Shown one piece after another: positions 14,797-52,349 of a DNA stretch of 64,000 bases (positions are counted from its first letter, which is position 1; each line of letters opens with the position of its first letter). A model generated the notes under the pieces. The model was not told the origin of the DNA, did not search any database, and saw nothing but the letters and a program-made list of their open reading frames with translations. Origin of the DNA: an uncultured Acidimicrobiaceae bacterium (lineage in GTDB: Bacteria; Actinomycetota; Acidimicrobiia; Spongiisociales; UBA5794); the NCBI GenBank assembly GCA_964584755.1, contig CAZPAV010000009.1:358-64357 (forward strand), written 5' to 3'. Position numbers and translations under genes: made by a program.

Positions 14797-15438
14797 TCAC
14801 CCGGCCGGGAGGGCGCGCAGGAAGGTGAGGACCGCCCGACGGGTCGCCTCGCGGTAGCGGGGATGGGCCGCCTTCCAGTCCGTCTCCTGGAGCCAGAGGA
14901 GGAACATCCCGTCGATGATGGCCCGCACCACGTCGGCGGTCTCCTCCACGTCCCCGTCCGGGAAGACCCCTCGCGTCATCCCGAGACGGACGACGTCCCC
15001 GTACGTCGAGTTGACGATGGAGCGGAACGTGGCGTTGAGCTCGCCGAAGCGGTCCATCCGGGAGGCGTAGTCGAGGAGATCGAGGTAGAGCAGGTAGAAA
15101 CGACGGTTCGCGTCGGCGTCGAAGAAGATGGCGTCGATCATCGCCTCCACCTGCGCCTCGGGGGAGTCGGCGGTCGCCACCGCCCGGCGGATCCGCTCCG
15201 CGGTGCGCGAGAGCGCCCAGTGCATGGTGGCGAGGATGAAGCGGTCCCGCGTGGCGAAGTGGTAGAGGATGACCCCCTTGCTCACCCCGGCGCGATCGGC
15301 GATCTCCTGCAGGGAGACGCGGTGCACCCCGTCCTCGGTGAACGCCTGGTAGGCGGTGCGGACGAGACGGACCTGCTTGGGCGTCAGCTCACCGGGGCGG
15401 GCGACGTCGGCGTTGGGTTCGGTCGTGGTCGTGGCCAT
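14797..15438 (-). CDS. TetR/AcrR family transcriptional regulator
   Basis: HTH SLQEIADRAGVSKGVILYHF; GGAGG SD before ATG 15438. Confidence 0.92.
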   Translation of the reverse strand: MATTTTEPNADVARPGELTPKQVRLVRTAYQAFTEDGVHRVSLQEIADRAGVSKGVILYHFATRDRFILATMHWALSRTAERIRRAVATADSPEAQVEAMIDAIFFDADANRRFYLLYLDLLDYASRMDRFGELNATFRSIVNSTYGDVVRLGMTRGVFPDGDVEETADVVRAIIDGMFLLWLQETDWKAAHPRYREATRRAVLTFLRALPAG

Positions 15439-15455
15439 GTCGGCCTCCAAGCTAG

Positions 15456-16199
15456 CTAGCCCATCACGAGTCCGCCGCTCACCCCGAGGGTCTGGCCCGT
15501 GATGAAGCTCGCCCGATCCGAGGCGAGGAACACCATGGCCGCGGCGACCTCCTCGGGCGTGCCGAAGCGGCGGATGGGGGTGGCGCGGACGATGGCCTCC
15601 ATGAGCTTGCCGTGCCCGGCGTCGATCATGCCCTGGAGGAGCGGGGTCTCGACGAGTCCGGGGGCGACGACGTTGACCCTGATGCCGTGGCGGGCCACCT
15701 CACGGGCGATGGCCTTGGAGAAGGCGATGACGCCACCCTTCGCCCCGGAGTAGACGGCCTCGCCGGAGGAGCCGTTCCGGCCCGCCTCGGACGCGGTGTT
15801 CACCACGACGCCGCGACCCCGCTCGATCATGTGGGGTAGGACGGCGTGACACGTGGAGAGCACGCCCTTGAGGTTGATGCCGAGCACCCGATCCCAGAAC
15901 TCGGGGGTCGTCTCGAGGAAGGGCTTGATGCGGTCCCATCCGGCGACGTTCACCAGGACGTCGATGCCACCCGTCTCGGCGATCACCTCGCTCACCCCGG
16001 CGGCGACCGCCTCCGGATCGGAGACGTCCATGGGGACGGCGAAGGCGCCGGCGTGGGCGGCCGCCGCCGCGGCGGCCCCCTCGGCGTTGAGGTCGGCGAT
16101 CGCCACCCGGGCCCCTTCGGCGGCGAAGGCGGCCACCGCGGCCCGGCCGATCCCGCTGGCGCCGCCGGTGACGAGCACGACCCGATCTGTGAACTCCAT
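15456..16199 (-). CDS. badH: SDR, BadH-like 2-hydroxycyclohexanecarboxyl-CoA dehydrogenase family
   Basis: TGGASGIG, VNVAGWD..KPFLET, GSSGEAVYSGAKGG, ITGQTLGVSGGL; last enzyme gene of the bcr operon. Confidence 0.75.
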   Translation of the reverse strand: MEFTDRVVLVTGGASGIGRAAVAAFAAEGARVAIADLNAEGAAAAAAAHAGAFAVPMDVSDPEAVAAGVSEVIAETGGIDVLVNVAGWDRIKPFLETTPEFWDRVLGINLKGVLSTCHAVLPHMIERGRGVVVNTASEAGRNGSSGEAVYSGAKGGVIAFSKAIAREVARHGIRVNVVAPGLVETPLLQGMIDAGHGKLMEAIVRATPIRRFGTPEEVAAAMVFLASDRASFITGQTLGVSGGLVMG

Positions 16200-16210
16200 C
16201 GTCGATCCTC

Positions 16211-16972
16211 CTATCGCGCGAGTGCCCCGTCGGGGTCGAGCCGGCGGAGCGTCGTGAGCTCTTCGGTGGTGGGCGGGGGTGTGGTGGGGACGTCCTCCTC
16301 GGCAGGGAGGGGGAAGCCGGTCGCCTCCCGTACCGCGGCCACGGTCACCCCGGGATGGACGCTGCGCAGGCGCATCCGGCGGGTCGCCGGGTCGAAGTCC
16401 ATCGTGGCGAGCGGGGTGACGACGAGGCTCGGTCCCTCCTTGCGGTAGGGCCGGTCCTGGGACGGATCCGCCGGGTGGCCCGGTCCGCTGACGAAGTCGA
16501 CGCGCTCGACGAACGTTCGCGGCGTGTGGGCCTCGGTGTAGATGATGGAACGGCGGGTGTTGGGGAGGAAGGGAAGGCCCACGGTGCCCGGGCCCCGCAG
16601 ACGGGGGTGCGCCCAGTCGCCCACGACGATGAGGTTGCAGTTCCCGTAGGCGTCGATCTGGAGACCCCCGGCGCAGAAGACGTCGAAGGCGTCGCCGCGG
16701 CCCTCGAGGAGCACCACGTCCGGGAGGGGGAGGGTCGTCGCCGCCGGTGCCAGTCCCGGGTCGCAGGAGGAGGTGAGGAGCGTGGGCGGCTCGGGGCTCA
16801 CCGTACCGCTCCCGCCGACGATGAACTCGAGGGAGGGGGCGTGTCGGGCCCGGGCGAGTCGACACGCCGCCATGGGGAGCGCCGGCACCGCGCCCATGAC
16901 GACGACCTCGCCGTCGCGGAACGCCCTCGCCATGACCACGGCCATGAGCTCGGCGGGGGACCAGTCGCTCAC
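16211..16972 (-). CDS. CoA-transferase-fold beta subunit (GctB/IpdB-like)
   Basis: ELMAVVMARAF, GGLQIDAYGNCN, FVERVDFVSGPG, LRSVHPGVT; GTGA overlap. Confidence 0.85.
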   Translation of the reverse strand: MSDWSPAELMAVVMARAFRDGEVVVMGAVPALPMAACRLARARHAPSLEFIVGGSGTVSPEPPTLLTSSCDPGLAPAATTLPLPDVVLLEGRGDAFDVFCAGGLQIDAYGNCNLIVVGDWAHPRLRGPGTVGLPFLPNTRRSIIYTEAHTPRTFVERVDFVSGPGHPADPSQDRPYRKEGPSLVVTPLATMDFDPATRRMRLRSVHPGVTVAAVREATGFPLPAEEDVPTTPPPTTEELTTLRRLDPDGALAR

Positions 16973-17826
16973 CTTCCACCTCCGGGGATCGCGGCACGGT
17001 ACGACGCCTCGTCGCTTCCGACGTGCGCCACGGCCCAGGCGGCGACGTCGTCGACCTGCCGGTGGGCGCCGAGGTAGCGGCGGATCGCCTTCTCGTCCCG
17101 GTCGTACCGGCCCGGGGCCGCGGTGGGATGGCACCCTCCCGGGCTGACCACCACGGCGGAGACGAGGAAGGCGGGGAGGGTCTCCGCGGGGGAGCGATCA
17201 GCGAGGCTCCCGGTGGGGACCACCTCCTCCACCTGGACGACGAGGCGCCGCGCCGCCAGGGCCATGAGCCGGTCGGTGAAGGGGAACCGGTCGAACGCCA
17301 CGTTCCCCGCCTCGTCGGCGAGCGAGCAGGCGACGAACGTCACGTCGGGACGCAGTCCCGGGATGGCCCAGCGCGTCTCGCCCGTGAAGGGGTCGGTCAC
17401 CTCGCGGTAGAGCTCCGGGTCGACCTTCGGGATGTCGGTGAGGTCGATCCCGGGAGGGCACGGCAGGAACGGGATCCCACCCGCTCCCGCGTAGAGGGCG
17501 TGGGTGAGGGACCCCTCGTCGCACTCGAGGACCCGGAGCCGGCCCTGCTCCACCGCCCGGCGGAACGCCGGGGCGAGGCCGAGATGCTCGAACCCGACGT
17601 ACGGGCTGAGGATCTCGGTGACGAGACCCGCGGCGATGGGCAGGTCCGCCTGGAGCGAGGCCGACGGGCTGGTGACGAGCCGGCCGACGCGCGCGCCCTG
17701 CCGGACGAGGGCGCGGACGAGCGCCATGGGCGCCGCCGTCATGTGCATGCCGCCGACGGCGAGCACCGCGTCGGCGGGAACGAGCTCGGCGACGGCGGTG
17801 TCCGGGTCGAGGAAGCGGGTGGTCAC
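16969..17826 (-). CDS. CoA-transferase-fold alpha subunit (GctA/IpdA-like)
   Basis: VGG.H..AAPMALVRAL, ECDEG, GIPFLP, DPFTG, ADEAGN, GGCHP. Confidence 0.85.
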   Translation of the reverse strand: MTTRFLDPDTAVAELVPADAVLAVGGMHMTAAPMALVRALVRQGARVGRLVTSPSASLQADLPIAAGLVTEILSPYVGFEHLGLAPAFRRAVEQGRLRVLECDEGSLTHALYAGAGGIPFLPCPPGIDLTDIPKVDPELYREVTDPFTGETRWAIPGLRPDVTFVACSLADEAGNVAFDRFPFTDRLMALAARRLVVQVEEVVPTGSLADRSPAETLPAFLVSAVVVSPGGCHPTAAPGRYDRDEKAIRRYLGAHRQVDDVAAWAVAHVGSDEASYRAAIPGGGR

Positions 17827-17830: not shown

Positions 17831-18796
17831 TCAGAGCGCGGCGCCGCAGTTGCCGCAGAAGCTCGTCGCCGCGGGAAGGCCCTTGGCGCCGCACGCGGCG
17901 CAGGTCTTCGCCGGGGGTCCCCAGATGAACTCGGACGAGCCGCCGTCACGCGCCCGCTCCCGGACCCCCCGGTAGTCGGGGGGACGCTTCTCGACGAAGG
18001 CCGTCATGCCCTCCCAGGGCTCGAGGGACGTGTAGTGGAGGGTCAACCAGTCCCGGGCGTGACCGATCGTCATGTGCCAGGCGAAGTCCTTCCAGAAGTT
18101 CGTCTGCTCCTTCGTGTAGCGCATGCACTCGGGGAACTTGTCGATGAGCCGCCGGCAGAGGTCGTCGACCTCGGCGTCGAGCCGGTCCCGGGGAACGACC
18201 CGGTTGACGAGTCCCCACTCGAGGGCCTGCTGGGCGGAGATGGGCTCCGAGAGGAGGAGCATCTCGCGGGCGCGACGGTCCCCCACCATGATGGGGAGGA
18301 ACTGCGTCGCGCCACCGGCGGCCACGCTCCCGACGCGGGTACCGACCTGGCGGATCGTGACGTCGTCCGCGGCGACGGCGAGATCGCAGGCCATGTTGAA
18401 CTCGTTGCCGCCGCCGGCGACGATGCCGTTGAGGCGGGCGATCGTCGGCTTCCCCATGCCGCGCAGCGCGTCGTGGCACGCGGCGAAGAGCGTCATGTAC
18501 TTCCAGTACTCGTGGGGTCGCTGGGTGTACACCGAGGCATACTCCTTGACGTCCCCGCCGGTGCAGAAGGCCTTGTCTCCGGCGCCGGTGAGGACGAGGA
18601 CGGCGACGCCGTCGTCGAACGCGGCGTCGCGGAACGCCTCGAGCATCTCGCCCAGGGTGTTCGTGCTGTAGGCGTTGTAGTTGTGGGGGCGGTTGATCGT
18701 GACCCGGGCGACCCAGTCCTGCTTCTCGTAGATGATGTCCTGGAATCCGAAGCTGTCGGGGTCGCGTCCGGTCAGGACGCTCGACTCGTCGGTCAT
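17831..18796 (-). CDS. oah: Crotonase-family ring-opening hydrolase, Oah/BamA-like, with C-terminal zinc ribbon
   Basis: AFCTGGDVKEYASVYTQRPHEYWKYMTLF and KFPECM resemble 6-oxocyclohex-1-ene-1-carbonyl-CoA hydrolase; tail CAAC...CGNC. Confidence 0.75.
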   Translation of the reverse strand: MTDESSVLTGRDPDSFGFQDIIYEKQDWVARVTINRPHNYNAYSTNTLGEMLEAFRDAAFDDGVAVLVLTGAGDKAFCTGGDVKEYASVYTQRPHEYWKYMTLFAACHDALRGMGKPTIARLNGIVAGGGNEFNMACDLAVAADDVTIRQVGTRVGSVAAGGATQFLPIMVGDRRAREMLLLSEPISAQQALEWGLVNRVVPRDRLDAEVDDLCRRLIDKFPECMRYTKEQTNFWKDFAWHMTIGHARDWLTLHYTSLEPWEGMTAFVEKRPPDYRGVRERARDGGSSEFIWGPPAKTCAACGAKGLPAATSFCGNCGAAL

Positions 18797-18880: not shown

Positions 18881-19696
18881 TCACACCGCGGCCGGTTGCT
18901 TGCGGTCCACCTTCTGGAGCCGCAGGTGGGCGAGGAGCGCCGCGCCGTACGCTCCCGCGTAGTTTCCCATGTCGTCGGGGGGGACGAGGAATCCGAACCC
19001 GAGCTTCTCCTCGAGCACCTCGGCGACGAGGGGCACCCGGGTGAGGCCGCCGGTGAGGGCGCACGGCGGCTCGGGCCGAACCCGCTTGACGAGCTGGGCC
19101 GCCCGCCCCGCGAGCGCGGCCACCGCCCCGGCGCAGACGTCCTCGGCGCTCTCGCCGGCGGCGAGATGGTTGATGATCTCCGACTCGGCGAAGACGGCGC
19201 AGACGCTCGAGACGGGCACCGGCTTCTGCGCGGCTCCCGAGAGCTCGGCGATGGCTCCCACCTCGTGACCCATGTACCGGACCGTCTTCTGGAGGAAGGC
19301 GCCGGCGCCGGCGGCGCACTTGTCGTTGAGACGGAAGGCCCGCACCCGGCCGGTCTCGTCGAGCCGGATGGCCTTGACCGTCTGGCCGCCGGCGTCGAGC
19401 ACCGTCCGGACCTCGGGCAGGAGTCGGTGCACCGCGTAGGCGTGACAGGTGAGCTCGGTGACCGCGAGGTCTCGTTCGGGGACGGCGTGCCTCCCGAAGC
19501 CGGTCGTCGCGACGTAGGCGATGGCGGAGCGGTCGAGACCGGCGATCTCGAGGGTCTCGCTCAGGGCCTGCTCGGCGGCGCGGGGGAAGTTGTACCCGGT
19601 GAGTCGGCTCGAGCGGGCGACGATCGTCCCGTCCTCGTCGGCGATGACGGTCTTCGTGTAGCTCGATCCGAGGTCGATCCCTGCCGTGAGTGTCAT
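18881..19696 (-). CDS. bcrD: Class I benzoyl-CoA reductase ATPase subunit (BcrD/BadG-like)
   Basis: AGIDLGSSYTK, ATTGFGR, LNDKCAAGAG, SSVCAVFAESE, AGAYGAAL; ATGA overlap. Confidence 0.8.
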   Translation of the reverse strand: MTLTAGIDLGSSYTKTVIADEDGTIVARSSRLTGYNFPRAAEQALSETLEIAGLDRSAIAYVATTGFGRHAVPERDLAVTELTCHAYAVHRLLPEVRTVLDAGGQTVKAIRLDETGRVRAFRLNDKCAAGAGAFLQKTVRYMGHEVGAIAELSGAAQKPVPVSSVCAVFAESEIINHLAAGESAEDVCAGAVAALAGRAAQLVKRVRPEPPCALTGGLTRVPLVAEVLEEKLGFGFLVPPDDMGNYAGAYGAALLAHLRLQKVDRKQPAAV

Positions 19697-20511
19697 GACG
19701 TCCTTCCCCTCTCTGCCGAGGCACCGGTGAGGACCTGGTCGAGGGCGAACAGGGCCGCTCCGATGGCGCCGCAGTGCTGCGATTCCTCGCTCGTGTTCAC
19801 CGGGGAGTCGGTGAGCTCGGCGATGAGCTCGACCATGGCCGCGTTCCTCGCCACTCCACCGGTGAAGGTGATCTCCGGCTCGATGCCGACCCGCCGCAGC
19901 AGCGAGACGCTGCGGGAGGCGATGGCCCGATGCACGCCGAGGATGACGTCCTCCTGCTTGCGGCCTCGGGCGAGCCAGCCGAGGATCTCGGACTCGGCGA
20001 AGACGGTGCAGGTGGTGCTCATACGCACCGGGTGGGTGGCGGTGAGGGCGAGGGGTCCCAGCTCGTCGAGGGGCACCTCGAGGGCGTCGGAGGCGGCGCC
20101 GAGGAAGCGTCCGGTACCGGCGGCGCACTTGTCGTTCATGCAGAAGTCGACGACGCCGCCGTTCTCGTCGACCTTGATGGCCTTCGTGTCCTGTCCTCCG
20201 ACGTCGAGGACGGTTCGGGTCCCCGGGAAGAGGTACACCGCACCGCGGGCGTGGCAGGAGATCTCGGTGACCTGGGCGTCGCCGAACTCGATCCGGTACC
20301 GGCCGTATCCGGTGCCGACGATGAACCCCACCTCCTCGGTGGTGCGGCCCGCGTCGGCGAGCGCCATCTGGAACGCCCGCTCGCCGGACTCGTCGAGCCG
20401 CACCCCGGTGTCGGTGAGGGCTCGGCCGAGCACCCGCCGACTCCCGTCCATGATCACGGCCTTCGTCTGGGTGGAGCCGACGTCGACGCCGGCGACCAAC
20501 ATCTCGCTCAT
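19693..20511 (-). CDS. bcrA: Class I benzoyl-CoA reductase ATPase subunit (BcrA/BadF-like, short form)
   Basis: GVDVGSTQTK, GTGYGR, EISCHARG, DVGGQDTK, MNDKCAAGTG, TTCTVFAESE, FTGGVARN. Confidence 0.82.
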   Translation of the reverse strand: MSEMLVAGVDVGSTQTKAVIMDGSRRVLGRALTDTGVRLDESGERAFQMALADAGRTTEEVGFIVGTGYGRYRIEFGDAQVTEISCHARGAVYLFPGTRTVLDVGGQDTKAIKVDENGGVVDFCMNDKCAAGTGRFLGAASDALEVPLDELGPLALTATHPVRMSTTCTVFAESEILGWLARGRKQEDVILGVHRAIASRSVSLLRRVGIEPEITFTGGVARNAAMVELIAELTDSPVNTSEESQHCGAIGAALFALDQVLTGASAERGRTS

Positions 20512-20518: not shown

Positions 20519-21823
20519 TCACCTCCCCGCCGTCACGCGGCGGCTCTCGAGGGACTCGAAGAACGCGTCGATCCGGTTCTTGAGCTGTGCCTCGGCCCAG
20601 AGTCGCGAGTCGACGAGATCGGACTGGATGAAGAGTCCGGGGGTGTCGTCGGCGCCCATGAGCCACTCTCGGGTGTCGGGCAGGCCCGTCGAGGTCGTCC
20701 GGCAGGACTTCACCCCGTGGTAGCAGATCCCGTCGATCGACCAGTCCCGGACCGCCTCGCGCTGCCACTCCTGGGAGAAGAAGATCCCGCTGAAAGACGG
20801 CTGGGCCGTGAGCACGATCTGCTCGGCGAGGCTCTCGATGGGACGCTCGAGGTCGTAGTGGATCCCACGATCGATGCCACCACCGGCGTACGACATGTAC
20901 TCGCTGGCGACGAAGACGCCGTTCCAGTCCTCGAAGAGGCCGACGAAGTCGCGGAAGTGCGAGTAGCAGGCGGTGCCGATGAGGAGGAGGCGGAACCGCT
21001 CGTCGGGAACGGCCCCGACGCCGTGGGCCACCCGCTCATCGAGCTCGGCGAGGGCGGTCTCCATGAATCGGGTCCCGCGGGGGTCGCCGCGGTAGATGTT
21101 GGCGATGCCCTGGTAGTTGATCCCCTCGGTGAGGGCGTTGAAGGGCGCAGGCCGGTGCTGGTTCGTCTTCATGATGGCCTGGTAGAGCTCCGACATGCGG
21201 TTGACCTCGCCCATGACGGCGCGCAGCTTGTCGATGTCGAAGCGTTGGCCTGTCTGCTCCTCGCAGAAGGTGATGAGCTCCCGCATCTGCTGCTCGACGT
21301 ACGCCTTGTCCTCGGCGAAGGTCCGGGTACCGGATCCGTACGCGAACCCCGAGCCGCGCCAGCCCGGGATGTCGAGGACGAACGTGGGCGTCCCGTACAT
21401 GCGCTCCCAGATCTCCGCCCACTTGATGTACGTGTTGCACATGTTCGTGGCGACCGTGAAGGCGGGTTGCGGGTACGTGCCCATGGGGTGGGCCCGGTCG
21501 GTGACGTGGAGGCCGACGTCGACCTTCACGTAGCCGCAGATGTCGGGGGAGTAGCCGTAGTCCTCGGCGGCCTCGAGGTACTGCATGGCCTTCCCCTTCA
21601 CCGCGGTCTGGAGGGCGGCGATCTCGGGGAAGCTCATGGGGATGTCGAAGGTGCTGAGGATCTCGGCCATGGATCCCATGACGAAGACGTTGGCCACGGG
21701 CCGGCCGCTCGTGGCGGCCTCGCTGAGCTCCTTCCACCACTCCTCGATGAGCTGGCGGCTCGCCCTCCGGGTGGTCCCGGCGAGCGCCAGAGGGGGACGA
21801 ATGGCGACGCGGCGTTCTTTCAT
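20519..21823 (-). CDS. bcrB: Class I benzoyl-CoA reductase beta subunit (BcrB/BadE-like)
   Basis: YSPDICGYVKVD, NMCNTYIKW, FDIDKLR, VKSC, SDLVDSR...KNRIDAFF. Confidence 0.82.
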   Translation of the reverse strand: MKERRVAIRPPLALAGTTRRASRQLIEEWWKELSEAATSGRPVANVFVMGSMAEILSTFDIPMSFPEIAALQTAVKGKAMQYLEAAEDYGYSPDICGYVKVDVGLHVTDRAHPMGTYPQPAFTVATNMCNTYIKWAEIWERMYGTPTFVLDIPGWRGSGFAYGSGTRTFAEDKAYVEQQMRELITFCEEQTGQRFDIDKLRAVMGEVNRMSELYQAIMKTNQHRPAPFNALTEGINYQGIANIYRGDPRGTRFMETALAELDERVAHGVGAVPDERFRLLLIGTACYSHFRDFVGLFEDWNGVFVASEYMSYAGGGIDRGIHYDLERPIESLAEQIVLTAQPSFSGIFFSQEWQREAVRDWSIDGICYHGVKSCRTTSTGLPDTREWLMGADDTPGLFIQSDLVDSRLWAEAQLKNRIDAFFESLESRRVTAGR

Positions 21824-22998: not shown

Positions 22999-23012
22999 GG
23001 TGCCTCGCTTCT

Positions 23013-23061
23013 TGACTAACCGGTCAGTCAGAATCATGCCACGGGCATCCGCCGGCGACAA
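23013..23061 (-). promoter_or_regulatory. bcr operon promoter with overlapping palindromic (TetR-type) operator
   Basis: Minus strand TTGTCG(23061-56)-N17-CATGAT(23038-33); near-perfect palindrome TGACTAACCGGTCAGTCA at 23013-23030 covers the predicted start site. Confidence 0.75.
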
Positions 23062-24448: not shown

Positions 24449-24464
24449 CGGGGCCCTCGGGCCG

Positions 24465-24941: not shown

Positions 24942-24988
24942 GGGCGGCAGGGTAGCCTGCGCACGACGGCGGGGAAGGAGGCGCGGGC

Positions 24989-39278: not shown

Positions 39279-39279
39279 G

Positions 39280-46425: not shown

Positions 46426-47036
46426 TGACCGTCGAGGCGACCGAGGCCACCGCGGACGTCGGGACGGGCGAGCGCATCCGGCGTGCCGCCGCCGCGCTCT
46501 TCCGGGAGAAGGGCTTCAACGGGACGAGCATGGCCGACCTCGCCGCCGCGGTCGGCATCACGAAGTCGAGCCTGTACCACCACTTCTCCTCGAAGCAGGC
46601 GCTGCTCCTCGAGATCCTCGAGCTCACCGTCGACCGGGTGACCCCGGCGTTGCGGGCCGTAGCCGAATCGGAACGACCCGCCACCGAGCGGCTCCGCCGG
46701 GCGGTCGTCATGCACGTCGTCGAAGGGCTCCGCGACCGGGACAACCTCGCCTGCTTCGTCGAGGAGGGCCGGTACCTCGAACCGGCGTACATGGAGGCGT
46801 ACGTCGCCAAGCGCGACCGCTACGAGCACTACGTGCGCCGCATCATCCGCGACGGCATCGCCTCGGGCGAGTTCCGTCCCGTCGATCCCCGCCTCACCGC
46901 GATGGCCATTCTCGGCATGGCGAACTCGGCGGTTCGCTGGTACCGGCCGGAGGGCGACTACACGCCGGAGGAGATCGGGGCGTCGTTCGCCGAGCTCGTC
47001 GTCGACGGGCTCCTCGCCGGAGGCGCCCCCACATGA
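46422..47036 (+). CDS. TetR/AcrR family transcriptional regulator
   Basis: [33 protein letters not shown]; C-terminal WYRP. Confidence 0.93.
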
Positions 47037-48256
47037 GCGGCGCGCTGGCGGGCATCCGGATCCTGGATCTCTCCCAGGGCGCGGCCGGGCCCATCGCCAC
47101 CATGTTCCTCGGCGACCTCGGTGCCGAGGTCGTCAAGGTGGAACCACCGGGAGGGGAGTGGGGCCGGGGACTCGGTCCGCCCTTCCTCGGGGGGACCGCG
47201 GCGGCCTTCGTGGGGATGAACCGCAACAAGCGGGGCATCGTCGTCGACCTGAAGCGCCCCGGTGGCAGCGAGGTGGTGGCCCGCCTCGCCGAGGGGTGCG
47301 ACGCCATGCTGGAGAGCTTCCGTCCCGGCGTCGCCGACCGGCTCGGCGTCGGGTACGCCGCGCTCTCCCCGCGCAACCCTCGCCTCGTCTACGCGACGAT
47401 CTCGGCCTTCGGTCAGGAGGGCCCGTGGCGGAACCGCCCCGGGGTCGACGGCATCGTGCAGGCGGTCGGGGGGATCATGAGCGTCACCGGGACCGAGGAC
47501 GGGACCCCCGTCAAGGTGGGGGTGCCCGCCGCCGACATGGTCGCCGGGATCTTCGCCTCCCAGGCGATCGTCGCCGCCCTCTACGCCCGGGAGCGGACCG
47601 GCGCCGGCCAGCGCGTCGACCTCTCCCTCCTCGAGTCGCTCCTCGCCTTCCAGGTCGTGCCCCTCTCCATGTACCTCGCCTCGGGACGGCCGCCTCGTCG
47701 CATGGGGAGCGCCGCGCCGTACTCGGCGCCCAACGAGGCCTTCCGCACCGCCGACGGGTGGATCCAGGTCGCCGCCTACACGCCCCGTCGCTGGCCGGCC
47801 CTGTGCGCCGTCCTGGGGCGTCCCGAGCTCGCCACCGATCCCCGCTTCGACACGAACGCCGGGCGCGTCGAGCGACGGGGGGAGCTCCACGCCGAGCTGG
47901 AGGCGGCGTTCGCGACCCGCACGACGAAGGAGTGGCTCGCCGAGCTCGAGGCGGTCGACGTCCTCTGCGGGCCGATCCTCTCCTACCCGGAGCTCCTCGC
48001 CGAGGACCACCTCGCCCGGATCGACGCCCTCCCGACCTTCACCCAGCCCGGCGTGGGGGAGCTGCGGGCGGTGCGGAACCCGGCCCGCTTCTCCGATACC
48101 GGGGCGGTGCACCGGCGGCCCGCGCCGTTGCGTCCCGGGGAGGACACCCGCGAGGTGCTCGCCGCCGCCGGGTTCGCCGCCGACGAGATCGCCGAGCTCG
48201 TGGCCCGGGGCGTCGTCTCCGCGCCCGAGGAACCGAACGGAAAGGAGGAGCCGTGA
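47033..48256 (+). CDS. Family III CoA-transferase (CaiB/BaiF)
   Basis: [39 protein letters not shown] with catalytic Asp, APNEAFRT. Confidence 0.93.
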
Positions 48257-49068
48257 CGACCGCCGGCACCAGCTCGAACGCCCCCGAGGCGCCGGTCCTG
48301 TGGGAACGGGACGGCGCGGTGGGGATCATCACCCTCAATCGTCCGCAGGCGCTCAACGCCCTCACCGTCGAGATGCTCGAGACGATGGAGCGGATCGTCG
48401 CCGACGCGGAGGGGGACCCCGACCTGCGGGTGCTCGTGCTCACCGCCTCGGGCGAGAAGGCGTTCTGCGTCGGCGCCGACCTCAAGGCCCGCGCCGCCGA
48501 GTACGAGGCGGGTACGGTGCACGACCCGCTCGGGGACCTCATCCGCCGGGTCCAGCGACGGTTCGAGACGAGCGACAAGCCGATCATCGCCGCCCTCTTC
48601 GGCTACGTCCTCGGCGGGGGCCTCGAGATGGCCCTCGCCTGTGACCTGCGAGTGGCCACCGAGGGGGCCCAGCTCGGCTTCCCGGAGGCGCGGGTGGGGA
48701 GCATGCCGGGGGTGGGGGGCACTCAGCGGACGACGCGACTCGTCGGCGCGTCCCGGGCGAAGGAGCTCATGTTCACCGGGGAGCGGATCCGCGCCGAGCA
48801 GGCCCTGCAGTGGGGGCTCGTCAACCGGGTCGTGCCCGAGGGCACGCTCATGGAGGCGACCCGGGAGCTCGCCGGGAAGGTCGCGGCGAACGCGCCGCTG
48901 TCGCTGGGGCGCATCAAGGCGGCGGTGAACCGGGCGGCGGACGTCGATCTCGACACCGGGCTCGCGTTCGAGGCGATGTGTCACGCCGTGCTCAGGCACA
49001 GCGAGGACCGCAAGGAGGGTATCCAGGCCTTCGTGGACAAGCGGAAGCCCGTGTTCAAGGGTCGTTGA
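48253..49068 (+). CDS. Enoyl-CoA hydratase (two catalytic Glu)
   Basis: [40 protein letters not shown]. Confidence 0.92.
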
Positions 49069-49081
49069 GGAGGTCGAGAAG

Positions 49082-49816
49082 GTGAACGTCAGCAATCGGG
49101 TCGCGATCGTGACCGGGGCCGGCCAGGGGATCGGCGAGGGGATCGCGCGCGCCTTCGCGGCGCGCGGGGCGAAGGTCGTCGTCAACGACGTGGTCGCCGA
49201 CCGTGCCGCGGCGGTGGCCGAGGACCTCGGGGGGAACGGGGTGGCGATCCCCGCCGACATCTCGGTGGCGGAGGGGGCGAACGAGCTCGTGGCGAAGGCC
49301 ACCGAGGCCTTCGGCCAGGTGGACGTGCTCGTGAACAACGCCGGGATCTCCCGCCCCGGGTACGTGGCGAAGATGAGCGACGAGGACTGGGAGAGCGTCC
49401 TCAAGGTGAACCTCACCGCCCAGTTCCTCACCTGCCGGGCCGTCATCCCCCAGATGATGGAGCGGAAGTGGGGCCGGATCGTCAACATCTCCTCCCGGGC
49501 GTGGCTCGGGGGGGCGGGACAGGCGAACTACTCGGCGTCGAAGGGCGGCGTCGTCAGCCTCACCCGCAGCCTCGCGCTCGAGCTCGCCCGCTTCGGGATC
49601 ACGGTGAACGCCGTCGCCCCCGCGCTCGTCGACACCCCGCTCTTCCAGGGCCTCAAGGACGAGATCAAGGAGAAGCTGGTGAAGACGATCCCGATGCGCC
49701 GGGTGGGGACGCCAGACGACATCGCCAACGCGGTGCTCTTCTTCGCGGCCGAGGAGTCGGCGTACGTCACCGGCCAGCTCCTGTACGTCTGCGGCGGCCG
49801 TAGCCTCGGGGCGTGA
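49082..49816 (+). CDS. SDR, resembling BbsD (2-[hydroxy(phenyl)methyl]succinyl-CoA dehydrogenase)
   Basis: NRVAIVTG, GRIVNISSRAWLGGAGQANYS, PDDIAN, VTGQLLYVCGGRSL. Confidence 0.85.
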   Translation: MNVSNRVAIVTGAGQGIGEGIARAFAARGAKVVVNDVVADRAAAVAEDLGGNGVAIPADISVAEGANELVAKATEAFGQVDVLVNNAGISRPGYVAKMSDEDWESVLKVNLTAQFLTCRAVIPQMMERKWGRIVNISSRAWLGGAGQANYSASKGGVVSLTRSLALELARFGITVNAVAPALVDTPLFQGLKDEIKEKLVKTIPMRRVGTPDDIANAVLFFAAEESAYVTGQLLYVCGGRSLGA

Positions 49817-49832
49817 CCACGGGGACGACGCC

Positions 49833-51092
49833 ATGGGCATGACCGTCGCGGAGAAGATCCTCGCCCGGGCCTCGGGCCGGGCGTCCGTGCGCGCCGGGGA
49901 GTTCGTCGTCGCCGAGATCGATCTGGCGATGACCCACGACATCTTCGCGGCGACGGTCTTCGACGCCCTGCTCGACCTCGGCCGGGAGAAGGTGTTCGAC
50001 CCGGCGAAGGTCGCGGTCGTCATCGACCACCTCGTCCCCGCGCCGTCCGCCCAGGCGGCGGCGATCCACCATCGCATCCGGGAGCACGTCGAGCGGTTCG
50101 GGATCGGGATCTTCTACGACGCCGGGGAGGGCATCTCGCACCAGCTCCTCCCGGAGCGGGGCCACATCCGACCCGGGATGCTCGTGGTCGGAACGGACTC
50201 CCACACCACCACCTACGGTGCGCTCGGTGCCGCGGGGACGGGCGTGGGCACGTCCGACATGGTGTACGCGCTCGCCACCGGGCGGCTCTGGTTCCGGGTT
50301 CCCGAGACCATCCGCTTCGAGCTCGCCGGCGCCCTCGAGCCGCTCGTCTCCTGGAAGGACGTCGTGCTCGCCATCGCGGGGCGGATCGGGAGCGACGGTG
50401 CCCAGTACCGGGCCCTCGAGTTCGGTGGGCCCGGCGTGGCGTCGGCGCCGGTCTCGGGCCGTCTCACGGTGGCGAACATGGCCGTCGAGCTGGGGGCGAA
50501 GTTCGGGATCTTCCCCGCCGACGAGTGCACCTTCGCGTACCTCGGGGAGGAGACCCCGGGGGCGCCACGGCCCGATCCGGACGCGGCGTACCTCACCGTC
50601 GAGGAGCTCGAACTCGCCACGCTCGGACCGCAGGTGGCGCTCCCCTCCGACGTCGACCGGGTGACGGCGGTGCGGGACGCGGAGCCGGTACGGATCGACC
50701 AGGCGTTCCTCGGGTCCTGCACCAACGGGCGGCTCGACGACCTCCAGGCCGCCGCCGCCATCCTCCGGGGGCGGAAGGTCGCCCCGGGGGTGCGACTCCT
50801 CGTGGCCCCGGCGTCCCGCCGCGTCCTCGAGGCGGCGCTCGCCGACGGGACCGTCGCCACGCTCGTCGCGGCGGGCGCCACGCTCCTCGCCGCGGGGTGC
50901 GGGCCCTGCTTCGGCGGCCACGGCGGGCTCCTCGCTCCCGGCGAGCGATGCGTCTCGACGAGCAATCGGAACTTCGTGGGACGCATGGGATCCCCCGCGG
51001 CCGAGATCTACCTCGCCTCGCCCGCCACCGTGGCCGCCTCGGCGGTGGCGGGGCGGCTCGTCGACCCCAGGGAGGTGCAGGATGGCCGCTGA
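49833..51092 (+). CDS. leuC: LeuC/HacA-family hydro-lyase large subunit
   Basis: DHLVP, GTDSHT, FLGSCTNGR, GCGPCFG, STSNRNFVGRMG. Confidence 0.92.
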   Translation: MGMTVAEKILARASGRASVRAGEFVVAEIDLAMTHDIFAATVFDALLDLGREKVFDPAKVAVVIDHLVPAPSAQAAAIHHRIREHVERFGIGIFYDAGEGISHQLLPERGHIRPGMLVVGTDSHTTTYGALGAAGTGVGTSDMVYALATGRLWFRVPETIRFELAGALEPLVSWKDVVLAIAGRIGSDGAQYRALEFGGPGVASAPVSGRLTVANMAVELGAKFGIFPADECTFAYLGEETPGAPRPDPDAAYLTVEELELATLGPQVALPSDVDRVTAVRDAEPVRIDQAFLGSCTNGRLDDLQAAAAILRGRKVAPGVRLLVAPASRRVLEAALADGTVATLVAAGATLLAAGCGPCFGGHGGLLAPGERCVSTSNRNFVGRMGSPAAEIYLASPATVAASAVAGRLVDPREVQDGR

Positions 51093-51579
51093 CGTCGTGC
51101 GGGGCCGGGCCTGGTGCTTCGGTGACGACATCAGCACCGACCTGCTCTCGCCGGGGGCGTACGCGGTCGATCCCGTCGAGGTCCGGAAGCTCCACGTCCT
51201 CGAGTCGGTGAACCCGTCCTTCGCCGCCGAGGTCCGACCCGGGGACGTGGTGGTGGCCGGGAGGAACTTCGGCTGTGGCTCGAGCCGGGAGACGGCGCCG
51301 GAGAACCTCGCCGCGCTCGGCGTCTCGTGCGTGGTCGCCTCGTCGCTGGCCCGCATCTTCCTGCGCAACGCCGTGGCGATCGGTCTCCCCGTGCTCATCT
51401 GCCCCGGCGTCGACGCCGCGGTCCACGACGGAGACGAGGTGGAGGTCGACCTGGGCGCGGGGACCGTCCGGGTGCTGCCCGACGGCCCGACGCTCCGAGG
51501 GGAGGGTCTCCCCGAGGCGATGCGGGAGATCCTCGCCGCCGGCGGCATCCTCGCCGTGCTCCGCTCCGGAGAGGGGTGA
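51082..51579 (+). CDS. leuD: LeuD/HacB-family hydro-lyase small subunit
   Basis: FGDDISTD, AGRNFGCGSSRE, ARIFLRNAVAIGLP. Confidence 0.92.
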   Translation: MAADVVRGRAWCFGDDISTDLLSPGAYAVDPVEVRKLHVLESVNPSFAAEVRPGDVVVAGRNFGCGSSRETAPENLAALGVSCVVASSLARIFLRNAVAIGLPVLICPGVDAAVHDGDEVEVDLGAGTVRVLPDGPTLRGEGLPEAMREILAAGGILAVLRSGEG

Positions 51580-51603
51580 GGGCGGGTCGCGTCGCGAAAG
51601 GGG

Positions 51604-51637
51604 TTGACGCGCGAGTATTCTGACCGTATGGTCAGAA
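51604..51637 (+). promoter_or_regulatory. Sigma70-type promoter with overlapping palindromic operator
   Basis: TTGACG(51604-09)-N17-TATGGT(51627-32); palindrome TTCTGACC-GTAT-GGTCAGAA (51618-37). Confidence 0.8.
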
Positions 51638-51677
51638 CGAGCGCCTCACCCGAGGCCGTGGCGAAGCGGAGTCGTGC

Positions 51678-52349
51678 ATGGCGGTGACCCTCCCCGGGGA
51701 CGGGACCCTGACGGATCTCCTCGAGGTCCTCGGTCGCACCGCGGACGCGATGATCGCCGTCGACGGCGATCTGCGCATCGTGGCCTGGAACGACGCGGCG
51801 ACCGAGCTGCTCGGGTTCAGGCCCGAGGAGGCGCTCGGCCGGCCCTGCCACGAGGTCCTCGCCTGGGTCGACCGGTGCGGGGATCCGGTCTGCGACGCCG
51901 ACTGTCCCGCCTCCTGCCCCGGCGAGCCCGACGAGCTGGTGCGGACCCGCGACGTCATGGGTCGTTCCCGGACGGGCCGGCGTCTCTGGCTGAGCGCCAC
52001 GACGATCGTGCCCCCGCCGGAGCTCCGGGACCGGTGCCGCCTCATCCACCTCGTCCGTGAGGTGGGCCTCCCCCCCGAGCTCGAGCGGCTCCTCGCCGAG
52101 CGGCTCGGTGGTCTCCTGGAGCCGCCGGAGCGTCCCCGCGACGAGTTCGCCGAACGGCTCGCCCGCCTCACGCCACGTGAGCGGGAGGTGCTCGGCCTCC
52201 TCACCGAGGGCCTCGACGGTGCCACGATCGCCGAGCGCCTCTATCTGTCACGCACCACGGTGCGCAACCACGTCCAGCACATCCTCAACAAGCTCGAGGT
52301 CCACAGCCGGGTCGAGGCGGTCGCGCTCGCCCTCCGCTCCACCTCCTGA
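51678..52349 (+). CDS. PAS-domain plus LuxR-HTH transcriptional regulator, Cys-rich PAS
   Basis: AMIAVD...WNDAATELLG PAS start; LTPREREVL...TTVRNHVQHILNKL. Confidence 0.9.
   Translation: MAVTLPGDGTLTDLLEVLGRTADAMIAVDGDLRIVAWNDAATELLGFRPEEALGRPCHEVLAWVDRCGDPVCDADCPASCPGEPDELVRTRDVMGRSRTGRRLWLSATTIVPPPELRDRCRLIHLVREVGLPPELERLLAERLGGLLEPPERPRDEFAERLARLTPREREVLGLLTEGLDGATIAERLYLSRTTVRNHVQHILNKLEVHSRVEAVALALRSTS

Follow-up and report, generated by a model that had tools for sequence, protein, structure and literature searches.

Predicted unusual versions of enzymes for anaerobic phenol-type aromatic breakdown in a gene block of an uncultured actinobacterium

RESULTS

Gene content of the block

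The window, by which we mean the whole 64,000-nucleotide stretch of DNA analyzed here, contains 63 genes by codon-statistics gene calling. Positions 14797 to 52349 form a block of 38 genes, all intact, whose limits fall exactly on two stop codons, that of a TetR gene at 14797 and that of a PAS-LuxR gene at 52349. Housekeeping genes flank the block on the left (alr, UDG, tsaE, tsaB, rimI, tsaD, groES, and groEL) and on the right (amt, glnB, glnD, cimA, trpS, serB, guaB3, and guaA; guaB3 scored 538 bits; cut-off, 342). When gene families were assigned with Pfam and NCBIfam models, every class that the original prediction had placed in one block between housekeeping regions (Pps, UbiD/UbiX, Hcr, Bcr, Oah-like, and Kor genes) was recovered, and none of the block proteins reached the NCBIfam equivalog cut-offs for Bcr, Hcr, or Ppc.

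14797-15450, minus strand, TetR-family regulator, last gene of the reductase operon (Pfam TetR_N, TetR_C_6)
15456-16199, minus strand, BadH-like SDR (best NCBIfam model BadH, 269 bits; cut-off, 431)
16211-16972, minus strand, IpdB-like subunit (Pfam CoA_trans)
16969-17826, minus strand, IpdA-like subunit (Pfam CoA_trans)
17831-18796, minus strand, MenB/BadI/Oah-like crotonase (NCBIfam Oah 205, BadI 203, MenB 192 bits, all below cut-off)
18881-19696, minus strand, MbdP-like ATPase delta subunit (Pfam BcrAD_BadFG; best PDB match MbdP, 241 bits)
19693-20511, minus strand, MbdQ-like ATPase alpha subunit (Pfam BcrAD_BadFG; best PDB match MbdQ, 345 bits)
20519-21823, minus strand, MbdO-like reductase beta subunit (Pfam HGD-D; PDB 9G87 MbdO, 375 bits)
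21835-23037, minus strand, MbdN-like reductase gamma subunit (Pfam HGD-D; PDB 9G87 MbdN, 470 bits)
23153-24448, plus strand, PaaK-type aromatic acid-CoA ligase (Pfam AMP-binding, AMP-binding_C_2; NCBIfam PaaK 223-263 bits, below cut-off)
24465-24941, minus strand, PNPOx-like flavoprotein (family models)
24989-25552, plus strand, UbiX prenyl-FMN synthase (271 bits; cut-off, 188)
25726-26481, plus strand, IclR regulator (family models)
26510-27946, plus strand, PpcB-like UbiD-family (de)carboxylase (NCBIfam phenyl_P_beta 426 bits; cut-off, 469)
27943-28803, plus strand, HAD-IIA phosphatase (Pfam Hydrolase_6, Hydrolase_like; TIGR01460 134 bits; cut-off, 100)
28800-29891, plus strand, PpsB-like ATP-binding subunit (PPDK_N, 379 bits)
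30041-31861, plus strand, PpsA-like phospho-histidine subunit (PEP-utilizers domain; PRK08296.1-5 910 bits; cut-off, 578)
31866-32339, plus strand, 157-aa ORF, no family match
32336-33049, plus strand, FabG-like SDR (family models)
33059-34033, minus strand, HcrB-like subunit (NCBIfam HcrB 277 bits, next 157; below cut-off)
34030-36423, minus strand, HcrA-like subunit (NCBIfam HcrA 863 bits, next XdhA 535; below cut-off)
36420-36884, minus strand, HcrC-like subunit (NCBIfam, below cut-off)
37036-38139, minus strand, PrpF-family isomerase (family models)
38136-39278, minus strand, SCP-x/BbsB-type thiolase (family models)
39280-39720, minus strand, DUF35/ChsH2-OB protein (family models)
40016-41266, plus strand, homocitrate/isopropylmalate-synthase-like gene (family models)
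41259-43070, plus strand, IorA (IOR_alpha 683 bits; cut-off, 651)
43063-43923, plus strand, IorB with a fused C-terminal 2x[4Fe-4S] domain (family models)
43920-46425, plus strand, KorA/B/C-type 2-oxoacid:acceptor oxidoreductase (OFOR alpha 555 bits; cut-off, 411)
46422-51579, plus strand, TetR, family III CoA-transferase, crotonase, SDR, and homoaconitase-type large and small subunits (family models)
51678-52349, plus strand, PAS-LuxR (GerE) regulator at the right end of the block

Reductase operon

The four reductase subunits (g22-g25) pair one-to-one with MbdNOQP as their best PDB matches, the beta subunit being 44% identical to MbdO. The beta and gamma subunits scored 80 and 149 bits against HadB and HadC, and 102 and 132 bits against BzdO and BzdN. 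The NCBIfam scores of the reductase core were 185 bits for BcrB and 293 bits for BcrC, both under the cut-offs; a control, MbdO, also fell under the cut-off of TIGR02260 (221 versus 486 bits). HadB and HadC models were secondary matches (126 and 190 bits). Two distinct ATPase subunits are encoded, both short (approximately 270 aa against the 432-position BcrA model). A 2-hydroxyacyl-CoA dehydratase identity was rejected because the one-to-one MbdNOQP matches lie far above HadBC and the two ATPases differ. By its PDB scores, the enzyme belongs with MbdNOQP and not with the BcrCBAD type of Thauera; of the BcrCBAD assignment made originally, the four-subunit class I reductase stands and the type does not. 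NCBI records label close homologues of the reductase "2-hydroxyacyl-CoA dehydratase."

The TetR regulator at the end of the operon has a weak PDB match to MbdR (4UDS, 42 bits), and its homologue follows the Bcr-like module in four related loci (L085, L087, L089, and L117). The BadH-like SDR may serve the ring pathway as a hydroxyacyl-CoA dehydrogenase; an SDR gene lies within the Bcr-like module in L085, L089, L117, L118, and L119 and is missing from it in L087/L088. The crotonase, 79% identical to its homologue in an Acidobacteria metagenome-assembled genome (MAG) (L089), is a candidate ring hydrolase or hydratase.

The IpdA-like subunit matched AibA (112 bits), IpdA (96-101 bits), and GctA (60 bits) in the PDB, and the IpdB-like subunit matched GctB (83 bits), AibB (82 bits), and IpdB (75 bits); AibAB we take to be a 3-methylglutaconyl-CoA decarboxylase. 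The pair has the glutaconate-CoA-transferase fold, but Glu54 of GctB aligns with a glycine of the IpdB-like subunit in the conserved motif IVGGSGTV. The catalytic glutamate is likewise glycine (Gly57) in IpdB (PMC5380842).

Phenol cassette and HcrCAB

The PpsA-like protein has the histidine motif GGMMSHASIV. For the UbiD protein, the next NCBIfam models after phenyl_P_beta were VdcC (350 bits) and PpcA (222 bits), and NCBI records give relatives at 53 to 55% identity the name "phenylphosphate carboxylase subunit beta." The HAD-IIA protein has DIDGT and GDxxxTD motifs, its start and stop overlap the neighboring UbiD and PpsB genes, and its gene comes next after UbiD in every related locus of sufficient length; we propose that it is the aryl-phosphate-cleaving partner of the carboxylase. 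The PNPOx-like, UbiX, and IclR genes all accompany the UbiD cassette in L091-L097, L106, and L115, and the 157-aa ORF showed no conservation in the related loci. PpsC, PpcA, PpcC, and a KdsC-type PpcD are absent from the window. The PaaK-type ligase gene is transcribed divergently from the reductase operon; in Desulfatiglans anilini, 4-hydroxybenzoate-CoA ligase activity has been proposed for a PaaK-type enzyme of the phenol cluster (PMC6114531).

The HcrB-like protein aligned over its full length with Thauera aromatica 1RM6_B (37% identity), and all four cysteines of its inserted [4Fe-4S] loop align with the loop cysteines of that protein; relatives of the CO dehydrogenase type align with the sequence before and after the loop but not with the loop itself, which we take to be specific to 4-hydroxybenzoyl-CoA reductase. 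A generic xanthine dehydrogenase identity was rejected on the retained loop and on the HcrA over XdhA score.

Right part of the block

The PrpF/thiolase/DUF35 trio recurs in L089, after the Bcr-like module, and in L096, where it flanks the phenol cassette. The approximately 12 kb from 40016 to 51579 is one operon, with start/stop overlaps of 4 to 8 nt from 41259 to 48256; its tie to aromatics is by co-location only. CxxCxxCxxxC motifs lie at 42984, 43732, and 43825, and genes g42-g46 directly follow PpsA in L096 and L105. The window lacks a stand-alone ferredoxin, a canonical Dch/Had pair (with a Zn-ADH-type Had), and glutaryl-CoA dehydrogenase.

Assembly integrity and host

The block was recovered in four independent metagenome assemblies at 99.9 to 100% identity with even depth, and its tetranucleotide profile matches that of the flanks (r = 0.995); on this agreement, a misassembly or chimera, which the original prediction had wanted excluded by such a check, was rejected. 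The flank order is actinobacterial (alr-tsaEB-rimI-tsaD-groESL ... guaB3-guaA), and flank proteins are 70 to 86% identical to those of Acidimicrobiia MAGs. From this synteny and these best matches, the host is actinobacterial and most likely belongs to the class Acidimicrobiia, and the actinobacterial host foreseen earlier is borne out. In the matching MAGs, the two flanks lie 0 to 4 kb apart; this organism therefore carries approximately 41.5 kb extra. The organism, a high-GC uncultured actinobacterium, was sampled at hydrothermal vents and in microbial mats. A single metatranscriptome comes from a sample that bears it; this data set is tiny and yielded no signal. Nothing in the window points to an anaerobic respiration.

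Related modules in other genomes

The UbiD-HAD-PpsB-PpsA cassette is kept, whole or in part, in approximately 17 related metagenome loci and is up to 83% identical in MAGs labelled as other phyla, a spread that is new. L097 has the same arrangement of Bcr and cassette as the window. In L085 and L117, the Bcr-like modules adjoin Hcr genes, benzoate-CoA-type ligases, and box genes; PAS-GerE regulators adjoin those of L117 and L119, and hemerythrin genes also lie next to such modules. L116, from an Ardenticatenaceae genome, has the cassette with neither Bcr nor Hcr nearby; such a cassette therefore need not feed an anaerobic pathway.

DISCUSSION

From homology and context, we infer the following pathway. 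Phenol would be phosphorylated by the PpsA/PpsB-like dikinase at the expense of ATP, and phenylphosphate would be converted to 4-hydroxybenzoate by a two-part carboxylase consisting of one prenyl-FMN UbiD protein, with its cofactor from UbiX, and the coupled HAD-IIA protein, which would cleave the aryl phosphate. The PaaK-type ligase would make 4-hydroxybenzoyl-CoA, from which HcrCAB would reductively strip the para-hydroxyl group to give benzoyl-CoA. The ring would then be dearomatized by the MbdNOQP-type class I reductase, which would consume ATP and draw its electrons from ferredoxin-type clusters; the 2-oxoacid oxidoreductases IorAB and/or KorABC would reduce these clusters. The dienoyl-CoA would be hydrated and then oxidized by the BadH-like SDR, and hydrolytic ring opening may fall to the MenB/BadI-like crotonase and/or the IpdAB-like pair; the C7 dicarboxyl-CoA would be shortened by the thiolase/DUF35 pair with the second crotonase and SDR. 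The substrates, with phenol as the presumed starting point of anaerobic growth, the direction of the carboxylase, the electron donor, and the ring-opening protein are predicted on these same grounds.

The same reaction sequence and protein families are found in T. aromatica and Aromatoleum (PpsABC, PpcABCD, 4-hydroxybenzoate-CoA ligase, HcrCAB, BcrCBAD, KorAB, and ferredoxin). The block shares with T. aromatica the HcrB four-Cys loop and a nearby 2-oxoacid:ferredoxin oxidoreductase; however, its ligase is PaaK-type, its HcrB is 37% identical, and its reductase is nearer to MbdNOQP than to the Thauera/Rhodopseudomonas models. The earlier description of the cluster as "near-complete" goes too far, since PpsC, PpcA, PpcC, the KdsC-type PpcD, a separate ferredoxin, canonical Dch/Had, and glutaryl-CoA dehydrogenase are missing. 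A precedent is the phenol-induced cluster of D. anilini, with ppsAB, ppcB as the only ppc gene, a PaaK-type ligase, and Hcr-like genes; Geobacter metallireducens likewise lacks ppc-gamma (PMC6114531). Like the block, these organisms have, within one cluster, genes for both dikinase subunits, for one PpcB-like UbiD with no gamma subunit, and for a CoA ligase of the PaaK type, together with Hcr-like genes. They are, however, strict anaerobes with a tungsten class II reductase (BamB-I), whereas the block encodes an ATP-dependent class I enzyme. In addition, a HAD-IIA gene is translationally coupled to UbiD in the block, whereas none is listed for the D. anilini cluster; in that species, the protein closest to PpcD is a KDO-8-P phosphatase whose gene lies in another part of the genome (PMC6114531). 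The proposed carboxylase of one UbiD and such a phosphatase is new.

MbdONQP (PDB 9G87/9GAI) resembles the block enzyme in its four subunits of corresponding sizes, short ATPases, and a TetR regulator in the cluster. The block differs in its beta-subunit divergence, its gene order (N-O-Q-P), its actinobacterial host, and its downstream genes (IpdAB-like pair, BadH-like SDR, PrpF, and DUF35/thiolase). The IpdAB-like pair recalls the EchA20-IpdAB system of the actinobacterial KstR2 regulon, where a MenB-like crotonase also precedes a GCT-like alpha/beta pair, SDR and TetR genes lie nearby, and the beta-subunit catalytic glutamate is replaced by glycine. Similarity to IpdAB is nevertheless low (75 to 101 bits), AibAB scores equally well, other steroid genes (ipdC, ipdF, and fadE30-33) are absent from the block, and the block pair follows a benzoyl-CoA reductase. 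What is new is a "CoA-transferase" pair that comes after such a reductase and, judged by alignment, has no catalytic glutamate, a feature it shares with the steroid ring hydrolase IpdAB.

It is conceivable, though unlikely, that the entry substrate is another phenolic or aniline, processed by the same pathway logic: a substituted phenol, for example, or aniline via phenylphosphoamidate to 4-aminobenzoate, with the MbdNOQP-like reductase and IpdAB-like hydrolase adapted to substituted benzoyl-CoA esters. The reductase is indeed nearest to 3-methylbenzoyl-CoA reductase, the UbiD protein is slightly under the PpcB cut-off, and IpdAB naturally acts on a substituted 6-oxocyclohexene-carboxyl-CoA (PMC5380842). 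Pps-like dikinases also act on other phenolics and aniline (PMC9618137; PMC7500099): Rhodococcus Pps homologues phosphorylate acetovanillone-type phenols (PMC9618137), and D. anilini activates aniline with synthases and carboxylases from non-phenol clusters (PMC7500099). Against this, PpcB and no other carboxylase is the best UbiD model, Hcr, which removes a para-hydroxyl group, belongs to the block and is found again beside relatives of each of the two modules, and the acetovanillone systems use biotin carboxylases, of which the block has none.

An improbable alternative is that the cassette decarboxylates or detoxifies, UbiD/UbiX acting on hydroxybenzoates while the Bcr and Hcr genes are little used or cryptic, or that the lifestyle is aerobic or facultative, without anaerobic growth on phenol. 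UbiD enzymes are reversible, the cassette occurs in genomes without adjacent Bcr or Hcr, aerobic box genes adjoin the Bcr-like module of a relative, and hemerythrin genes adjoin such modules; but an ATP-consuming phenol dikinase and a UbiD-coupled aryl-phosphatase make sense for carboxylation only, and none of the 38 genes is disrupted, their codon usage resembling that of the host (GC3, 0.91 to 0.98). We regard as very remote, and already largely refuted, the reading in which the Bcr-like proteins make up a 2-hydroxyacyl-CoA dehydratase plus activator, while those resembling Hcr are generic members of the xanthine/CO-dehydrogenase family, serving amino-acid or purine metabolism. The Pfam name HGD-D, the NCBI naming of close homologues, and the secondary HadB/HadC matches speak for it, and HadBC/HgdAB with activator do share the HGD-D/BcrAD superfamily and the principle of ATP-driven electron injection. 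Those systems, however, have one homodimeric activator rather than two different ATPase subunits, all four block subunits are far nearer to MbdNOQP than to HadBC or its activator, the HcrB loop is unaligned in CO dehydrogenase-type relatives, and, across several phyla, the neighboring genes are those for aromatic-acid CoA ligases as well as box and Hcr genes. The key proteins thus group, by the Mbd scores, the HcrA score, and the HcrB loop, with aromatic-pathway enzymes and not with the nonaromatic paralogues that the original prediction had named among the outcomes that would refute it.

That prediction knew of no demonstration of the trait in Acidimicrobiia. The trait had not gone wholly unnoticed: bcrBC and bbsA were reported in some marine-sediment MAGs of the order UBA5794 (Acidimicrobiia), in one sentence and with no experiments (PMC12008989, 2025).

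In conclusion, the enzymes of the block appear, from their sequences, to be unusual versions of known enzymes for anaerobic phenol-type aromatic breakdown. We consider it probable that the block is a chromosomal catabolic island through which a member of the Acidimicrobiia would turn phenol or, less likely, another phenolic compound into aliphatic CoA esters independently of oxygen.

Results

The block is an intact piece of one genome

Raw lists of open reading frames (ORFs) are useless at the 72% G+C of the window, and genes were called by codon log-odds, which gave 63 nonoverlapping genes, 38 of them inside the block. The limits of the block coincide exactly with gene ends, those of a TetR gene at 14797 and a PAS-LuxR gene at 52349. 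In Pfam and NCBIfam scans all of the block genes were full length against their family models, and every gene class listed in the original prediction was recovered. Housekeeping genes lie on both sides:

Left flank: alr, UDG, tsaE, tsaB, rimI, tsaD, groES, groEL
Right flank: amt, glnB, glnD, cimA, trpS, serB, guaB3, guaA

The JGI gene calls on an identical contig (L001) contain a 177-amino-acid NUDIX gene at 12867-13400 (plus strand) that is absent from the codon-based calls, beside a shortened acetyltransferase gene at 12222-12860.

The block is a real part of one genome. A misassembly or chimera, the danger against which the original prediction had proposed coverage and tetranucleotide continuity as checks, is ruled out by independent contigs and by even depth and composition; both measures are continuous across the block. 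Contig breaks do recur near 31.45, 38.45, 41.6, and 46.9 kb, all of them within full-length ORFs that match their families. Four contigs, each from an independent sample, encode the identical MbdO-like protein: the 25-kb contig L001 equals window positions 10519-31823 at 99.995% identity and spans the left junction, and three other contigs from different samples are 99.9 to 100% identical to the window. A single 25.7-kb contig runs from 46887 to the window end and crosses the right junction. Sampled window words were present at 79 to 100% in four public metagenome runs, two from hydrothermal vents and two from microbial mats, whose Logan contigs tiled 26 to 64 kb with a depth that was even inside each run (about 17 to 22x in run X1 and about 8 to 14x in run X2). 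The tetranucleotide correlation between block and flanks was 0.995, and GC3 was 0.91 to 0.98 for every gene.

The host and the site of the extra 41.5 kb

The order alr-tsaE-tsaB-rimI-tsaD-groES-groEL ... guaB3-guaA is the classic actinobacterial order, as in mycobacterial and streptomycete genomes. Comparison loci were fetched with the decarboxylase gene that adjoins the block (13397-14794), using one genome per GTDB species, and were then searched by local tblastn with all window proteins. Among loci fetched through this one gene, the best-matching genomes for housekeeping genes and their order were Acidimicrobiia; the decarboxylase matches were themselves mainly in Acidimicrobiia metagenome-assembled genomes (MAGs), the closest at 70% identity, and this species-level scan held no near-identical genome. 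GroEL (79 to 86% identity) and GuaB3 (79 to 84%) matched Acidimicrobiia/Actinomycetota MAG loci that have tsaE-tsaB-rimI-tsaD-groESL and cimA-trpS-guaB3-guaA in common with the window, and the whole left-flank order is common to several such MAGs. GuaB3 scored above its equivalog cutoff. The predicted actinobacterial host is upheld by this synteny and these matches, and so is the predicted GlnR box: the three-site element GTAAT-n6-GTAAC-n6-GAAAC at 52369-52395, upstream of amt-glnB-glnD, fits the actinobacterial GlnR-box pattern (GTnAC-n6-GAAAC).

In five of these loci (L013, L061, L067, L050, and L049), the decarboxylase gene is followed within 0 to 4 kb by cimA, trpS, guaB3, and guaA, the genes of the window's right flank, and tblastn with all window proteins found no block genes there. 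In the window the corresponding distance is about 41.5 kb (about 14797-56344), amt-glnB-glnD included; because the flanks of the relatives are only 0 to 4 kb apart, about 41.5 kb is extra at this position in the lineage. By gene order, this stretch is an insertion or rearrangement. No tRNA gene, Rfam match, or integrase or transposase domain was detected, and the block boundaries have no direct repeats beyond GC-rich chance matches.

A predicted benzoyl-CoA reductase most similar to MbdNOQP

One operon encodes two HGD-D-type core subunits and two nonidentical BcrAD_BadFG ATPases:

21835-23037, minus strand, reductase core subunit
20519-21823, minus strand, reductase core subunit
19693-20511, minus strand, reductase ATPase subunit
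18881-19696, minus strand, reductase ATPase subunit

The ATPase genes are paralogous, with about 71% DNA identity across a 132-nucleotide stretch. For each subunit the best match among solved structures was 3-methylbenzoyl-CoA reductase (MbdN, 470 bits; MbdO, 375; MbdQ, 345; MbdP, 241), and the beta subunit is 44% identical to MbdO. Grouping with 2-hydroxyacyl-CoA dehydratases, which the original prediction had recognized as a threat to its reading, was not observed: the dehydratases scored lower (149 and 80 bits for HadC and HadB; 162 to 220 bits for the Had and Hgd activators), and the BzdN and BzdO structures gave 132 and 102 bits against the core subunits. In NCBIfam, the Thauera-type BcrC and BcrB models ranked first but far under their cutoffs, and no subunit reached an equivalog cutoff of the benz_CoA_red_A-D or bzd-type models (C, 293 bits against 421; B, 185 against 487; A, 224 against 578; D, 140 against 313). 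As a control, characterized MbdO itself scored 221 bits against the BcrB cutoff of 487; since it fails as well, the subthreshold scores are no argument against reductase function. The enzyme is a putative class I (ATP-dependent) aryl-CoA reductase, which would reduce benzoyl-CoA by two electrons to the 1,5-dienoyl-CoA with ATP and ferredoxin.

The MbdO-like family comprises more than 100 clusters at ≥56% identity (that is, at least 56%). Among NCBI records, the closest taxon-named clusters are from Acidimicrobiia MAGs (70 to 76%), followed by Actinobacteria, Acidobacteria, and Armatimonadota. The neighbors of the module in three other loci favor an aromatic role and lend it support: HcrA/B-like and boxB/boxC-like genes and a benzoate-CoA-type ligase gene precede it in L085, whose MbdO-like protein is 75% identical; in an Armatimonadota MAG (L117) it comes after HcrCAB, a ligase gene, and a gene for a PAS-LuxR regulator that resembles the one in the window; and a 242-kb contig (L097) carries the module and the phenol cassette arranged as in the window.

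Other surroundings were also seen. Methylmalonyl-CoA-mutase-like, acyl-CoA dehydrogenase, hydantoinase A/B, and B12-binding genes precede the module in L087/L088 (1108-8706), where the hydantoinase genes are of the acetone/acetophenone-carboxylase-like kind, and the MbdNOQP-like clade therefore sits in several catabolic contexts. Hemerythrin genes adjoin modules from Armatimonadota and other uncultured lineages (L117, 14598-15137; L118, 16368-16799; L119, 5963-6463); they may serve in oxygen sensing or in protection of an oxygen-labile reductase in facultative organisms.

A predicted 4-hydroxybenzoyl-CoA reductase

The three subunits belong to the xanthine-oxidase family (2Fe-2S, Mo-pterin, and FAD):

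36420-36884, HcrC-like subunit
34030-36423, HcrA-like subunit
33059-34033, HcrB-like subunit

All three fall under the NCBIfam equivalog cutoffs, but A and B lie far above the next family. HcrA gave 863 bits (cutoff, 995) on the 4-hydroxybenzoyl-CoA reductase alpha model versus 535 for xanthine dehydrogenase, HcrB gave 277 bits (cutoff, 405) versus 157 for the next family, and HcrC gave 168 bits against a cutoff of 258. HcrB aligned end to end with the Thauera aromatica subunit (1RM6_B) at 37% identity, including the inserted loop, whereas CO dehydrogenase-type FAD subunits aligned only on either side of that loop. The four loop cysteines (122, 138, 146, and 155 by count) all align with cysteines of 1RM6_B, which we take to be the ligands of an extra [4Fe-4S] cluster peculiar to this enzyme. 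Given the HcrA and HcrB scores and the four-cysteine loop, the concern that these proteins might be generic xanthine dehydrogenases was not borne out.

Predicted phenol activation and a proposed minimal carboxylase

The cassette at 23153-31861 encodes a PaaK-type ligase, a PNPOx-like flavoprotein, UbiX, IclR, UbiD, a HAD-IIA phosphatase, and PpsB-like and PpsA-like subunits. Both halves of a split phosphoenolpyruvate-synthase-like enzyme are present: PpsB is the ATP-binding subunit (PPDK_N, 379 bits), and PpsA is the phospho-histidine subunit, with 910 bits on PRK08296.1-5 (cutoff, 578) and the motif GGMMSHASIV. The best model for UbiD was phenyl_P_beta (PpcB), at 426 bits against a cutoff of 469, followed by VdcC at 350; NCBI records named phenylphosphate carboxylase subunit beta are 53 to 55% identical to it.

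To call the pathway near-complete, as the original prediction did, goes too far. A scan of 57 called window proteins found no CBS-domain protein, and hence no candidate for the stimulating subunit PpsC, and the window, with a single UbiD gene, contains no PpcA (the second UbiD), 10-kDa PpcC, or KdsC-type PpcD. In place of those Ppc subunits, the HAD-IIA phosphatase gene adjoins UbiD; its catalytic motifs are intact, and it overlaps the stop codon of UbiD at one end and the start codon of PpsB at the other. Whole or partial copies of the unit ligase-PNPOx-UbiX-IclR-UbiD-HAD-PpsB-PpsA occur at 55 to 89% identity in about 17 related loci, always with the HAD gene next to the UbiD gene. The nearest described precedents are the phenol cluster of D. 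anilini, which combines ppsAB with ppcB only, a PaaK-type ligase, and Hcr-like genes and in which PpsC is also encoded outside the cluster, and G. metallireducens, from which ppc-gamma is likewise missing (PMC6114531).

The PNPOx-like gene (24465-24941), between the ligase and UbiX genes, is kept with the cassette in most related loci (L091 to L097, L105, L106, and L115), and its product may take part in redox chemistry or in the handling of prenyl-FMN. An additional 157-amino-acid ORF (31866-32339) separates ppsA from an SDR gene. Its codon usage is coding-like, but it matched nothing in Pfam or NCBIfam and is not conserved in related loci; it looks like a degenerate SDR half.

Named UbiD relatives at 64 to 83% identity come from MAGs labeled Anaerolineae, Chloroflexi, Gammaproteobacteria, Gaiellaceae, and Ardenticatenaceae. 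Transfer of the cassette between phyla is proposed because these close relatives carry other phylum labels, and the identity of the cassette to MAGs of other phyla (64 to 83%; L115 and L116) is about that of the window's housekeeping genes to other Acidimicrobiia. These data suggest that the cassette moves between phyla or that binning errors explain the labels. Some of the MAGs hold the cassette with no Bcr or Hcr genes nearby, and the anaerobic pathway therefore need not always be its destination.

Proposed ring opening and lower pathway

Downstream of the reductase genes come those for a MenB/BadI/Oah-like crotonase, an alpha/beta pair that has the glutaconate CoA-transferase fold and is annotated as a coenzyme A (CoA) transferase, a BadH-like SDR, and a TetR protein. 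An MbdR-like identity for this last protein was considered and rejected, the PDB match being weak and unspecific. The alpha subunit of the pair matched AibA (112 bits) and IpdA (101 bits), well ahead of glutaconate CoA-transferase, and the beta subunit matched AibB (82 bits) and IpdB (75 bits). Catalytic Glu54 of GctB aligns with a glycine in the conserved sequence IVGGSGTV of the window protein, and the homologues from three other loci likewise have this glycine. With its nearby SDR and TetR genes, the crotonase-alpha-beta arrangement resembles echA20-ipdA-ipdB of the KstR2 regulon. Oah of the benzoyl-CoA pathway opens an intermediate that shares the scaffold of the IpdAB substrate. The 3-methylglutaconyl-CoA decarboxylase AibAB matches the window pair no less well than IpdAB does. 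A Glu-to-Gly replacement like that opposite GctB Glu54 is reported for IpdB (PMC5380842). On the strength of the missing glutamate, the AibAB/IpdAB kinship, and the gene order, we tentatively regard the pair not as a transferase but as a decarboxylase or hydrolase, with a ring hydrolase as the most attractive option.

Only some members of the clade carry the pair (the window, L085, L089, L097, and L118); in L119 just the crotonase and SDR genes occur, and L117 encodes an Amidohydro_2 protein and an SDR instead. In an Acidobacteria MAG (L089), the module continues as DUF35-thiolase-PrpF, which ties the same trio in the window (37036-39720) to the reductase module.

Possible electron supply and the right-hand operon

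Most genes of the right-hand operon overlap by 4 to 8 nucleotides at their start and stop codons:

40016-51579, plus strand, twelve-gene operon: homocitrate-synthase-like, IorAB, KorABC-type 2-oxoacid:acceptor oxidoreductase, TetR, family III CoA-transferase, crotonase, SDR, and homoaconitase-type large and small subunits

IorA scored above its equivalog cutoff, and the three-subunit oxidoreductase is encoded downstream of IorB. The IorB-like protein (43063-43923) ends in a fused 2x[4Fe-4S] ferredoxin domain whose CxxCxxCxxxC motifs lie at 43732 and 43825, and this domain and the IorA cluster domain (motif at 42984) account for all ferredoxin-type motifs in the window; there is no separate ferredoxin gene within it. 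The first five operon genes lie directly after PpsA in L096, and the L105 contig has room for the first gene only; because operon genes follow PpsA directly in both loci, the association with the cassette is not accidental. We speculate that the operon encodes a 2-oxoadipate/homocitrate-type route for glutaryl-CoA; it includes no isocitrate-dehydrogenase-type gene.

Discussion

Most knowledge of anaerobic aromatic degradation comes from Proteobacteria, with a handful of Firmicutes and a single archaeon besides. Acidimicrobiia, which abound in marine sediments, sponges, vents, and mats, tend to be regarded as aerobic heterotrophs. A one-sentence mention of bcrBC and bbsA in some marine-sediment MAGs of the Acidimicrobiia order UBA5794 appeared in 2025 (PMC12008989); otherwise, literature searches combining Acidimicrobiia or Actinobacteriota with benzoyl-CoA reductase returned passing, survey-type mentions. 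A search at the broader level of Actinobacteria found no report of a phenol pathway in Acidimicrobiia, and the phenylphosphate literature that we came across does not mention a UbiD-HAD-IIA carboxylase. The literature found to join IpdAB with benzoyl-CoA concerns oestrogen degradation. The only metatranscriptome from a sample that holds the organism (15 Mb) gave spurious 18- to 21-nucleotide matches only.

The pathway itself is well known; judged from the genes, what appears to be new is the lineage, the minimal carboxylase, and a clade of MbdNOQP-like reductases that has accessory genes of its own. It is possible, although we consider it rather doubtful as a whole, that these loci represent a branch of the anaerobic benzoyl-CoA pathway not described before, spread over Actinomycetota, Acidobacteriota, and related uncultured phyla. 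In such a branch, an MbdNOQP-type reductase would be coupled to IpdAB/EchA20-type ring opening in place of the canonical Oah/BamA, by a module either borrowed from steroid ring catabolism or held in common with it, and phenol would enter through a minimal UbiD and HAD-IIA carboxylase encoded by an interphylum cassette. If this is true, surveys based on bamA and curated Bcr and Ppc models would overlook such organisms.

The variant parts, namely, the carboxylase with one UbiD and a HAD-IIA protein, the MbdNOQP-like clade with its hundreds of environmental members, and the IpdAB-like pair that lacks the glutamate, offer testable enzymology, and they could explain an undercounting of anaerobic aromatic degraders by marker genes such as bamA and the curated bcr models. 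An intact chromosomal island leading from phenol through benzoyl-CoA to ring cleavage would mean that Acidimicrobiia, too, remove phenolics in places with no oxygen or with changing oxygen levels.
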